The translations under genes and the position numbers were made by a program. 22,695 nucleotides of DNA from Thermoproteaceae archaeon (GTDB taxonomy: Archaea; Thermoproteota; Thermoprotei; Thermoproteales; Thermoproteaceae): positions 1 to 22,695 of the forward strand of contig JAJHRB010000021.1 in NCBI GenBank assembly GCA_020833025.1, in the 5' to 3' direction. The notes below the pieces were generated by a model, which was not told the origin of the DNA, made no database searches, and saw nothing but the letters and a program-made list of their open reading frames with translations. Position 1 is the first letter of the stretch. The number at the start of each line of letters is the position of its first letter. Below are positions 6,927 to 11,899 of this stretch, in pieces.

Positions 6927-7337
6927 ATGGCGGGGGGCGTGGGGGGTGGGCCAGTCGTCGGTAGGCATATTTACGGCAATCTTTACGGCTGCGATCCCCA
7001 GATACTGAGGGACGAGATAGCGCTTATATCTACCGTGATCGAGGCCGTGAGGGTAGCAAATGCCACGCTGCTGTCAGTCAGCTATTACAAGTTTGGAAAC
7101 GGCGGCGGGCTCTCTGTCTTTGCGCTAATAGCCGAGAGCCACATCTCAGTTCACACGTGGCCCGAGTATTACTTTGCCACAGTCGACGTGTACACGTGCG
7201 GCGCCAGCACGGACCCAAGGGCCGCGTTTGACTACATCGCGTCGAGACTTAAGCCGAGGCGCGTTGAGGTATTTTTCAGCGATAGGTCGCTGCGCTATGA
7301 ATGGCTTAAAAACGAGACGACGCAGACTGTTACGTGA
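6927..7337 (+). CDS. speD: Pyruvoyl-dependent S-adenosylmethionine decarboxylase proenzyme (SpeD/SpeH family)
   Basis: GRHIYGNL, autocleavage site IAE|SHISVHTWPE, and VDVYTCG. The paralogous crenarchaeal arginine decarboxylase cannot be fully excluded without a phylogeny. Confidence 0.82.
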   Translation: MAGGVGGGPVVGRHIYGNLYGCDPQILRDEIALISTVIEAVRVANATLLSVSYYKFGNGGGLSVFALIAESHISVHTWPEYYFATVDVYTCGASTDPRAAFDYIASRLKPRRVEVFFSDRSLRYEWLKNETTQTVT

Positions 7338-7942
7338 CTGTATACTTCAGACAGGCGTACCTCGAAATCGCCAATTTTATCCTGAACTCGTTCAGCAAGA
7401 TAAGCGAGAGTGATGTGGAGAAATTTGTTAGCGCTATAATAGACGCTTACAAGCATAACAACAAGATTCTTGTTGCCGGCGTTGGCAGAAGCGGCCTCGT
7501 GGGCAGGGCGTTCGCCATGCGGCTGCGCCACTTGGGCGTGGAGTCGTACGTGCTCGGCGAGACTATAACGCCATCTGTCAGGCAGGGAGACCTCGTAGTG
7601 GCGATCTCAGGCAGCGGCTCTACACAAATTATTATTACCGTCGCCGAGGCTGCCAAGAGGGCCGGCGCTAAAGTTGCCGCCATCACCTCTTTCTACGACT
7701 CGCCTCTCGGGCGGCTGGCGGATATAGTCTTGCTGGTGCCAGGAAGGACGAAGAGGGCCTCAAGCGACGATTATTTTGCCAGGCAAATCCTAGGAGTTCA
7801 CGAGCCCCTGTCGCCACTCGGAACGCTCTTTGAGGACACGTGCATGGTCGTGCTCGACTCAATTATCGTGGAGATAATGAAGCGGCTGGACAAGAGCGAG
7901 AGGGAAATGTCTGCGATACACGCAAACGTGGAGATATTCTAG
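7334..7942 (+). CDS. hxlB: 6-phospho-3-hexuloisomerase (SIS domain)
   Basis: GVGRSGLVGRAFAMRLRHLG, ISGSGST and PLGTLFEDT; GTGA overlap with the speD stop. Confidence 0.9.
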   Translation: MTVYFRQAYLEIANFILNSFSKISESDVEKFVSAIIDAYKHNNKILVAGVGRSGLVGRAFAMRLRHLGVESYVLGETITPSVRQGDLVVAISGSGSTQIIITVAEAAKRAGAKVAAITSFYDSPLGRLADIVLLVPGRTKRASSDDYFARQILGVHEPLSPLGTLFEDTCMVVLDSIIVEIMKRLDKSEREMSAIHANVEIF

Positions 7943-9537: not shown

Positions 9538-10935
9538 TCACGCCCTCACCGCTCTTCTGACCGCTGCGAGCGCAGCCTCCCTTGCAAGCGGCGACAGGGT
9601 GAGCAGCGATAGCAGTACTAGCGCTGCGAGTATGACGGCATTTGGGGCATACGTTGCAACGGTCTCGAGAAGCCCGCCGGTGGCGTAGGGAAGCGTCGGC
9701 ACTGGTGCGATGTAAATTAACGCAAGAGCCGCCGCGGCTGGTACGTACAGCTGCGTCAAGATCTTTAGGTACGCCCGCCCCAATAACCAGAGCCTGAAGG
9801 CCGCAGACGCAGTGCCGGAAACCGCGGATGCAATGACGATTCCGGTAATACCGTATGAGCACGCAAGTATGTATGTTAGTGCGAGAGCCAGGGGCGACAT
9901 CATAAGGTCGAGCGCGAGAGCCCTGGCCGGTCTGTCTCTCAGCGTGAAGATGACCTTCTCCTCAATGCCGCGCAGCACCGTGTCGGCATGCAGCCAGATG
10001 CCCCACACTACTATTGCTATTCCATTTAGGCTCACGGCCCTTAAGAGCTCCTCGTTTCCCAGCTCCGACGGCCTGACCACTGCGAGGTACCACTCCGGGC
10101 TCTTTGCGACTACCGCAGCCGCGACCAGGTGAATGTACATCACGACCACGCCGTCGAGGAGCGCGCGCCGGAGTTTGTCGCCTCCCGCCAGGAGAGATCC
10201 GTACATGAGCGACGCCACGGCGAGAGCGGGATACACCGATTTGCCTATCTGCAGCAGTATGTAGCTATAGGCGAGTAGCGAGCTCCCGCCTGCTGCGAAG
10301 ATAATATATGTCACCGCGCTGCTCGCCGCCGTGGCGGCGACGCTTAAGGTCTGGTAGTGTGCCCCCCTCAGTAACTCTCTAATGACCGCGAGGGCCCGGG
10401 AGAAGTCCGGGCGCTTCGTTCCTGCAAGCGCGGTGGGGAGACTCACGACGGCGCTTACGGCAAGCGCGGCGTGGGCGCTGGGAAATGCCCTGATGATGAG
10501 GGCGCCCGCAAGCTTTGCCGTCTGGCCGACGTAACCCAGCGCAACGGCCTTGCGCTGGTCGTGTACCACCAAGTAGGCACCTGCCGGCCACGCATTGAGG
10601 AGGAGCAGCGCAAGCCCCAGCGCCGCGATGGGGGCGTCAAGCCTTCCGTATGCACTGATGTAGGCGAGGAGTACGGCCCACGCAATGAAGGCTGTTAGCA
10701 TGCCCGCTCCCGCGAGCTCGGCAAAGCGCTCTGGCTCTCTCGCCAGCACTCTTGAGTACCACGCCGTGATGTATCCCAGCAGCGAGAGAGCAACTCCGAG
10801 CCCCGCGTTGAACGCCGTTAGTAGCGCGAGGTCGTCAAGCGGGAGCCTTCTAGTGACGGCGAGCGCATAAATTGCCGAGACCAGGAGCGAGTAAGCGCCT
10901 CCGAGCGCCGCGAGGACTCTAGTCTTGAGGGCCAC
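9538..10935 (-). CDS. Polytopic membrane protein, possibly MOP/Wzx-like flippase family
   Basis: 465 aa with many (12 or more) hydrophobic segments; the N-terminus (..LAVTRRLPLDDLALL..) resembles flippase starts. Function unconfirmed. Confidence 0.55.
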   Translation of the reverse strand: MALKTRVLAALGGAYSLLVSAIYALAVTRRLPLDDLALLTAFNAGLGVALSLLGYITAWYSRVLAREPERFAELAGAGMLTAFIAWAVLLAYISAYGRLDAPIAALGLALLLLNAWPAGAYLVVHDQRKAVALGYVGQTAKLAGALIIRAFPSAHAALAVSAVVSLPTALAGTKRPDFSRALAVIRELLRGAHYQTLSVAATAASSAVTYIIFAAGGSSLLAYSYILLQIGKSVYPALAVASLMYGSLLAGGDKLRRALLDGVVVMYIHLVAAAVVAKSPEWYLAVVRPSELGNEELLRAVSLNGIAIVVWGIWLHADTVLRGIEEKVIFTLRDRPARALALDLMMSPLALALTYILACSYGITGIVIASAVSGTASAAFRLWLLGRAYLKILTQLYVPAAAALALIYIAPVPTLPYATGGLLETVATYAPNAVILAALVLLSLLTLSPLAREAALAAVRRAVRA

Positions 10936-10956
10936 GGGGCAGTGAACTGTAGGGCA

Positions 10957-10965
10957 AAATTAAAA
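10957..10965. promoter_or_regulatory. Bidirectional TATA-like box for the membrane-protein gene and the sRNA/trm5 unit
   Basis: AAATTAAAA lies ~21 nt from GTG 10935 (-) and just upstream of the sRNA (+). Confidence 0.45.
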
Positions 10966-10981: not shown

Positions 10982-11043
10982 GCGCGGTGATGAGTGCAAT
11001 CCCCGTTGAGCTGGCGTGATGCGAGTCTGGAGCGCTGACGCGC
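10982..11043 (+). ncRNA. C/D box methylation-guide sRNA (predicted target tRNA-Trp C34)
   Basis: Terminal stem GCGCG/CGCGC; C GTGATGA (10987-10993); 12-nt guide; D' TTGA (11006-11009); C' GTGATGC (11016-11022); 12-nt guide GAGTCTGGAGCG; D CTGA (11035-11038). Confidence 0.88.
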
Positions 11044-11068
11044 AAAAATTTGTGGCGCGCGCACGCCC

Positions 11069-11899
11069 GTGGCGCTGAGGCAGAAAATGCGTGGCATCGT
11101 GCCCGACGAGCTGCTAGAGAGAGTGCCGACGTCGTTTGAGATCATCGGGTCGAGAGACGGCGCTGTTGCAATAGTGGAAATACCGCCAGAACTCGAGAGG
11201 TACAAATACAGCATAGCGAGGGCCATAGTGGAGCTAAACAAACACGTGAGGGCCGTGCTAAGGAGAGTCGGCGGGCGCACGGGCGAGTACAGACTCTACA
11301 ATTACGAGATGCTAATTGAGGGCCCAACAGAAGTTCTGCACAAAGAGCACGGTTACTACATAAAGGTGGACCCAACCAAGGTTTACTTCTCGTCTAGAGA
11401 CCAGACGGACAGGCTAGACGTTGCGAGAAGGGTAGGCGAGGGCGAGAGGGTGCTCTACCTCTTTGCTGGCGCGGGGCCCTACGCCGTGGCTATATCAAAA
11501 CTCGCCAGGCCGGGACTGATAGTTGCCGTCGAGCTGAATCCCTGGGGCTTTAAGTACATGGTTGAAAACTTCAGAATAAACAGGATGCGGAATGCCGTTG
11601 CAGTTCACGGTGATGTGGCAGTCGTGGCGCCGCTTCTCAGGCGAAAGTTTGATAGAGTGATCATGACACTGCCTCTCGGCGCTCGCAGCTATTTACCGCT
11701 TGCGCTTGAGTGTATAGACAGAGAGGGCGTGGTGCACTTTTACTGCCTCGGGCGCGAGGAGGATCCGTTCAGGGAGGCAGAGACAGCAGTGAGTGAGGCG
11801 TGCCCTAGCTGTGAAATAGTAGGAAAGAGAGTTGTCAGAGATTACGCTCCGCGCGTTTACAAGGTAAGAGTGGATGTATACCTCAAGAGGGAGTCTTGA
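11069..11899 (+). CDS. trm5: Trm5/Met-10+ family SAM-dependent tRNA position-37 methyltransferase
   Basis: SFEIIG, KEHGYYIKVDPTKVYFS, motif I LFAGAGPYA, AVELNP and FDRVIMTLP. Confidence 0.8.
   Translation: MALRQKMRGIVPDELLERVPTSFEIIGSRDGAVAIVEIPPELERYKYSIARAIVELNKHVRAVLRRVGGRTGEYRLYNYEMLIEGPTEVLHKEHGYYIKVDPTKVYFSSRDQTDRLDVARRVGEGERVLYLFAGAGPYAVAISKLARPGLIVAVELNPWGFKYMVENFRINRMRNAVAVHGDVAVVAPLLRRKFDRVIMTLPLGARSYLPLALECIDREGVVHFYCLGREEDPFREAETAVSEACPSCEIVGKRVVRDYAPRVYKVRVDVYLKRES

Follow-up and report, generated by a model that had tools for sequence, protein, structure and literature searches.

The stretch of DNA analysed here (22,695 nucleotides, referred to as the window) carries a gene for a predicted box C/D small RNA (sRNA) at 10982–11043 on the forward strand; 25 nt past the 3' stem of this RNA, and in the same orientation, begins a gene for a Trm5-family SAM methyltransferase of 276 amino acids (11069–11899). 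On the other side, divergent from the sRNA and with its start 46 nt away from it, lies ORF465 (9538–10935, reverse strand), whose product of 465 amino acids matches no Pfam family. ORF465 and the sRNA, being divergent, may share a promoter region. The source genome (G000) is a draft of 126 contigs, 94% complete and with 62.6% G+C; its 23S rRNA is missing from the assembly and its 16S rRNA is partial, and own rRNA matches to either guide of the sRNA could thus be hidden. The closest named Trm5 orthologues are from Pyrobaculum (77% identity, e.g. to P. oguniense TE7), then from Thermoproteus, and on sequence comparison the genome is that of a high-GC Pyrobaculum lineage.

Anatomy of the sRNA

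The preliminary description of this DNA had reported a textbook C/D sRNA with a 5-bp terminal stem, and boxes, guides and stem can all be read directly in the sequence. The 5' stem GCGCG (10982–10986) is followed by the C box GUGAUGA (10987–10993), a D' guide of exactly 12 nt, GUGCAAUCCCCG (10994–11005), the D' box UUGA (11006–11009), a 6-nt spacer, GCUGGC, between 11009 and 11016, the C' box GUGAUGC (11016–11022), a D guide of again exactly 12 nt, GAGUCUGGAGCG (11023–11034), the D box CUGA (11035–11038) and the 3' stem CGCGC (11039–11043), which forms five pairs with GCGCG and joins the C and D boxes (K-turn). The D' and C' boxes are each one base off consensus. A strict C/D regular expression matched at two places in the whole 1.56-Mb genome and at none in 10 shuffles, and the only match to a relaxed expression within the window was this sRNA; the C/D anatomy of 10982–11043 is in excess of chance. 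The predicted fold contains the terminal stem and, beyond it, no more structure than shuffled sequences, as expected because guides stay open. An Rfam search gave no match to the sRNA at the gathering score; below threshold, 10 of the 12 weak matches were to C/D families at the coordinates of the sRNA, the best being snoPyro_CD (full length, 18.4 bits, E 0.075). Genes for fibrillarin (C72:20393–21070, 342 bits) and Nop5 (C19:12390–13073, 245 bits) are present in the same genome.

The Trm5-family gene

The ORF at 11069–11899 matches PF02475 (TRM5/TYW2) with 141.4 bits against a cut-off of 28, and PF25133 (TYW2 N-terminal domain) with 64 bits; the protein has the SAM-binding motif FAGAGPY, and its best solved relative is Pyrococcus abyssi Trm5b (PDB 5yac, E 1.6e-55). 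The gene had been described as encoding a position-37 methyltransferase, with which the PF02475 and 5yac matches agree. The alignment begins at residue 88 of 5yac, from which it follows that the D1 domain is missing; upstream of the start the frame is open for just 10 more codons. All NCBIfam equivalog cut-offs were missed, with 214 bits against the 600 required for Trm5b (NF047730) and 131.8 against 550 for Taw22 (NF047728). This ORF is the only strong Trm5-family member in the genome, and a single-copy orthologue of approximately 275–290 amino acids was present in 41/41 relatives; the ten orthologues inspected all share VELNPW (with E at the position of MjTrm5b D223) and TLPLGA (with T at that of N265). 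Thermoproteales have been described as having a single Trm5, classed as Trm5a/Taw22, mostly D1-less and presumed to make m1G37 and imG2 (PMC7761594). The protein is the expected m1G37 enzyme, of the Trm5a/Taw22 type according to the literature, and it probably also performs a step of the wyosine pathway.

Putative promoters

A TATA-like box, AAAATTAAAA, lies at 10956–10965 on the forward strand and is the candidate promoter of the sRNA itself; AAAAUUAAAA stands 21 nt before the C box, a spacing much as in the sR26 genes of relatives (see below), and the arrangement recalls the A/T box with GGGAGGGG found ahead of tRNA halves of the same genome. Judged by these elements, the sRNA most likely has its own promoter. 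A second TATA-like box, AAAAATTT (11044–11051, forward strand), occupies the 25-nt spacer directly after the 3' stem and 17 nt ahead of the GTG that encodes the first residue of the conserved M-A-L-K/R start of the Trm5 protein. In orthologous trm5 loci, TTTTTAAA or TTTTATAAA is found 16–19 nt before a conserved GTG-GCN-CTN start. A TATA-like box at 16–19 nt before the start is the layout of leaderless Pyrobaculum genes, and the Trm5 gene is most likely served by a TATA box of its own within the spacer, with a leaderless start. The two genes had been taken to be probably co-transcribed, but the presence of AAAAATTT between them favours separate starts; two separate promoters are the simpler reading that the sequence suggests, with read-through possible.

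The D guide and its predicted target in tRNA-Trp

Searching the genome with the complement of the guide located a tRNA-like locus on contig C28 whose sequence at positions 30–41 of tRNA-Trp is GGCUCCAGACCC. The D guide forms nine contiguous Watson–Crick pairs with it at positions 31–39 (fewer than 8–9 had been set down as too few in the preliminary description); outside this block there is a G·G mismatch at 30, an A·C mismatch at 40 and a pair at 41. The complementarity to the anticodon loop of tRNA-Trp(CCA) described earlier thus stands for 31–39, including the G31–C39 pair that had been predicted, whereas the idealised guide complement, CGCUCCAGACUC, does not fit the actual tRNA sequence at 30 and 40. 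The fifth D-guide base from box D, G11030, is opposite the wobble base C34, as had been proposed, now on the genome's own tRNA-Trp. Sites with at least nine contiguous pairs including the fifth base number just 55 genome-wide; by chance one expects 0.06 such sites over the tRNA sequence as a whole and 0.0008 at a tRNA position 34. C34 in archaeal tRNA-Trp is a known Cm position. Given this complementarity, the sRNA should guide 2'-O-methylation of the wobble C34 in tRNA-Trp(CCA); the RNA of 10982–11043, if expressed, would act together with L7Ae, Nop5 and fibrillarin.

The ordinary tRNA-Trp genes of relatives have the anticodon arm GCGGG-CUCCAGA-CCCGU, and in the relatives checked (e.g. G022, G023 and G010) the guide is GGGUCUGGAGC, which pairs with tRNA-Trp 31–41 and is free of the A·C mismatch at position 40.

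The tRNA-Trp of the source genome is itself unusual, as its gene is in two pieces. The 3' half (C28:19256–19341, reverse strand) comprises the anticodon loop, T arm, 3' acceptor strand and CCA and has no D arm; the 5' half (GGGCCCG-UA-GCUCAGCCAGGCAGAGC-G-GCGG) is located at C46:~7290–7391 on the reverse strand, lying at 7391 and followed by a trailer. The break falls at 30/31, with an 18-nt intron after position 43, and 14 trailer bases of the C46 half are perfectly complementary to the C28 leader (duplex −48 kcal/mol); paralogous tRNA-Arg genes have a cis intron at 30/31. The D-guide target (31–41) is wholly on the 3' half and begins at the 30/31 junction. ARAGORN detected neither a tRNA within the window nor a tRNA-Trp elsewhere in the genome and called several long introns that were false, and the Rfam tRNA model missed the tRNA-Trp 3' half; a single-deletion scan of the C28 locus yielded only a false tRNA-Ala, and the locus was resolved by comparison with paralogues and relatives.

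Two further tRNAs, tRNA-Lys(UUU) (C81:~430–592, reverse, with C81:627, forward) and tRNA-Arg(UCU) (C13:7314–7391, forward, with C89:28993, reverse), likewise seem to be split at 30/31, their leaders and trailers matching; no partner was found for an Asn(GUU) 3' half-like gene (C74:5789–5832, forward). An intron-like insert, AGGCCG-N4-GCGGGCGG, after position 43 is common to all of these genes. No split tRNAs were found in five Pyrobaculum genomes by Chan et al. (2011). In the complete genome of one relative (G015:C1:1555150–1555500; L164) the tRNA-Trp locus likewise lacks a D arm upstream of GCUCCAGA; this tRNA-Trp may be split or contain a long intron.

Conservation of the D guide: the sR26 family

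The guide followed by its box, GUCUGGAGC-N-CUGA, was found with one mismatch allowed in 33/41 Thermoproteales genomes, with few matches in a reversed control, and within C/D sRNAs of Pyrobaculum and Thermoproteus it occupies the D-guide position. A Pyrobaculum family "sR26:C34Trp" is listed by Lui et al. (2018; NAR 46:5678, PMC6009581), who describe wobble-position guides as having single targets. A free-standing Cm34 guide for tRNA-Trp is, on that account, already published and is not new (PMC6009581). A sequence model (R1) constructed from the sR26 genes of 15 relatives matched the window only at 11015–11039 (19.5 bits, E 1.6e-5), over model positions 34–58 (C' box, D guide and D box), leaving the 5' half of the sRNA unaligned. 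By sequence, the sRNA is a new sR26 member through its C'–D guide–D half, with an unrelated D' guide, and it is the single copy of a tRNA-Trp guide in the source genome. In a more distant family, f2 (L072–L081; e.g. G025, G034 and G027), the tRNA-Trp guide plus CUGA is followed immediately by a GUGAUGA box, and the box order of this guide RNA looks permuted or D-first.

No sRNA sharing the D' guide GUGCAAUCCCCG was found in 40 relatives with up to two mismatches allowed; the two-mismatch matches that did occur lacked C/D boxes. The rRNA of two relatives (G001 and G016) and the partial 16S rRNA of the source genome contained no convincing site for it. The sole match in a tRNA context is to C48–U55 in the T arm of tRNA-Trp (8 bp including one G·U), where the fifth base from box D' would face G52, and 29 of 1000 shuffled guides equalled it; tRNA-Trp C48–U55 is a weak candidate target of this orphan guide, and we treat it as a lead and not as a finding. 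Were both guides to pair with tRNA-Trp, the sR26-like RNA could grip the free 3' half twice (D guide at 31–41, D' guide at 48–55) and help its folding or checkpoint trans-splicing besides directing methylation. C/D sRNA genes with their short promoters may, in addition, be movable modules that exchange positions at rearrangement junctions, here beside the Trm5 gene; we consider this combined proposal unlikely.

The conserved D' guide of sR26 itself (..GUGGGGCC) fits the same tRNA-Trp, complementing A73, C74 and the 3' acceptor strand so that its fifth base faces nt 70. When sR26 loci (L082–L101) were compared with tRNA-Trp loci (L143–L160), the D' guides of 13 Pyrobaculum relatives formed 7–8 bp with this region of the tRNA-Trp from the same genome. 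A matching change is seen in G005 and G002, where tRNA-Trp C69 is G and a G of the sR26 D' guide is U, and in G003 and G013 the pairing is shifted to the T-stem/acceptor junction. This pairing was not found in the main text of Lui et al. (2018; PMC6009581), as far as that text was drawn on here.

Gene order around trm5 and sR26

The preliminary description had proposed a co-expressed cassette of guide and Trm5 gene, for which synteny in Pyrobaculum and Thermoproteus is informative. A survey of the sequences upstream of Trm5 orthologues (L043–L064) showed an sRNA in the same orientation as trm5 in 17/17 other Pyrobaculum and 4/5 Thermoproteus genomes, but this was not the tRNA-Trp guide: in every case it belonged to a different family, here termed X, and in the fifth Thermoproteus genome (G024) family X is inverted upstream of trm5. 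The D' guide of X is (G/A/U)AACU(U/A)ACC.. or AACUUACC.. and is fitted by 23S rRNA CCGG[G]UAAGUUC; its D guide, ..GGGUCAGGG(A/G) or GGGGUCAGGGA, has a weaker 23S site, ACUCUGACCC, 33 nt upstream of the D'-guide site. Exact 10-mers of the D-guide target in G016 and G008 proved to lie in coding-like sequence and not in rRNA. Family X stands directly before the TATA box of the Trm5 gene (17/17 Pyrobaculum, 4/5 Thermoproteus); in G001 its D box abuts the trm5 ATG without an intervening TATA box. In the genomes carrying X before trm5, sR26 is found elsewhere, on different contigs or at different coordinates, and closer inspection of two of them, G016 and G001, shows it convergent with geneB and a few hundred bases from geneC.

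The source genome has retained family X intact at C61:~46530–46590 (reverse strand), between the orthologues of geneB and geneA. X has kept its old left neighbour there (the geneA orthologue, C61:46680–47708) and now converges on the geneB orthologue (C61:45013–46518). At the window locus, where the order is ORF465, sRNA and trm5 with the sRNA divergent from the former and directed towards the latter, the genes downstream of trm5 (DUF2153 and DUF2070) are the same as in relatives. Orthologues of ORF465 are restricted to the genus (12/15 members searched) and lie at a third locus, with no sRNA beside them at the four loci inspected. As both the left (ORF465) and the right (trm5) neighbours have changed, both sides of the approximately 100-nt sRNA module are rearrangement junctions. 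From these gene orders, the window sRNA and X are seen to have changed places between loci in this lineage; an excision joining the 3' sides of both sRNAs followed by re-insertion would be one scheme that fits.

An sR26-like guide adjoining trm5 was found in the source genome alone among the 41 searched, a distribution that goes against the proposed cassette. Two metagenome pattern scans yielded no junction of the sR26 guide with trm5 on other contigs; three pattern matches were due to chance, with no Trm5 gene after them.

Rearrangement versus functional pairing

We favour the reading, with a probability of roughly 0.85, that an sR26-like C34 guide has come to lie beside the single Trm5 gene through lineage rearrangements and not through a conserved functional pairing. 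In the ancestral state X, with its 23S-matching D' guide, would have preceded trm5 and sR26 would have lain beside geneB; a rearrangement would then have placed X beside geneB and the sR26-like RNA before trm5, where sRNA and Trm5 gene would each be expressed from their own promoter with no functional coupling.

The main alternative is a functional cassette in which one transcript would cover both the Cm34 guide and the gene of the G37 methyltransferase, and the two modifications of the tRNA-Trp loop would be made together. The genes share a strand with only 25 nt between them, two genera have kept a C/D sRNA immediately in front of trm5, and the arrangement in G001, with the D box abutting the ATG and no TATA box, indicates that sRNA–trm5 co-transcripts may exist in some species. 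Further, the tRNA-Trp of the source genome has G37, within CUCCAGA, so that the enzyme probably acts there and tRNA-Trp is a plausible Trm5 substrate; the same is true, however, of every other G37 tRNA, all of which the enzyme serves, tRNA-Trp not in particular. The earlier notion that guide and enzyme work on the same tRNA loop therefore holds to the extent that both could act on it, whereas a functional coupling of the two finds no support. The sRNA kept before trm5 in the 21 relatives with the same orientation is X and not the tRNA-Trp guide, sR26 being elsewhere in all of them; a TATA-like box separates the sRNA from the trm5 start codon; and no further metagenome contig carries the guide–trm5 junction. 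Taken with these observations, co-transcription for a joint function seems improbable.

It is also conceivable that the D guide in truth targets a different RNA, for instance the 23S rRNA at its 5' end or an mRNA. The 23S 5' end of relatives contains CGCUCCACACGG, which offers seven contiguous pairs plus two more, the 23S rRNA of the source genome itself is missing from the assembly, and 54 genomic sites other than tRNA-Trp, mostly in coding sequence, have at least nine pairs. The tRNA-Trp match is, however, longer and places the fifth-base site on a known archaeal Cm position, and the guide has been kept across 33 genomes alongside an invariant tRNA-Trp anticodon arm; a match in the 16S rRNA of G016 is absent from that of G001, and no conserved mRNA targets are reported by Lui et al. 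(2018; PMC6009581). A different target is accordingly a very slender prospect.

Least credible is that the rearrangement has left behind a decaying sRNA copy without function, as its orphan D' guide, its C' box GUGAUGC and D' box UUGA off consensus and its one more target mismatch than the guide of relatives might indicate, given that it is the sole tRNA-Trp guide copy in the genome and that sRNAs targeting tRNAs usually have C'/D' boxes that are degenerate and one guide that is orphan (PMC6009581).

As a discovery the locus carries little weight, since the guide family and its target have been in print since 2018 and the adjacency to Trm5 is explained as an accident of rearrangement. It does provide a clean example of two C/D sRNA genes exchanging loci while the layout of an sRNA directly before a gene's promoter is retained. 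Moreover, as the target of a wobble-methylation guide lies here beside the break of a trans-spliced tRNA-Trp, the order of methylation and joining becomes testable.

Comparison with known systems

The window sRNA and sR26 of the same genus are alike in being free-standing and in directing a D guide, GUCUGGAGC plus N plus CUGA, to C34 of tRNA-Trp. They differ in the D' guide, which in sR26 is ..AGUGGGGCC (Pyrobaculum) or GGUGAGCCC (Thermoproteus) and in the window sRNA GUGCAAUCCCCG; in the D'–C' spacer (6 nt in the window sRNA versus 3–4 in sR26); and in the 5' end of the D guide, which is GAG in the window sRNA and GGG in sR26, creating the A·C mismatch at tRNA position 40. The flanks of the window sRNA also differ on both sides from the usual geneC–sR26–geneB setting.

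A precedent for the change of place is the transposed "Pca sR26a" given in Table 1 of Lui et al. (2018; PMC6009581), which has a guide in common with sR26. Like the window sRNA it shares one guide with sR26 and not the other and occupies a new genomic place, although the shared guide is in the D' position in Pca sR26a and in the D position in the window sRNA. Unlike that of Pca sR26a, the move of the window sRNA went along with a shift of X, a second sRNA, into the former sR26 site.

The guide within the intron of euryarchaeal pre-tRNA-Trp (Clouet d'Orval et al., 2001; Singh et al., 2004, as cited in PMC3218864) resembles the window sRNA in serving Cm34 of tRNA-Trp by C/D RNP chemistry. In euryarchaea the intron of the tRNA itself acts as the guide, for Um39 as well, whereas the window sRNA is a separate gene with one guide for the tRNA-Trp anticodon loop; the tRNA-Trp introns and leader of the source genome contain no C/D boxes.

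The Trm5-family protein shares with characterised archaeal Trm5 enzymes (MjTrm5b, 2ZZM; PaTrm5b, 5YAC; PaTrm5a/Taw22, 5WT3) the D2 domain, the Rossmann-fold D3 domain and the FAGxGPY motif, but it is without D1 and has E for Mj D223 and T for Mj N265; its gene is single copy, as described for Thermoproteales.
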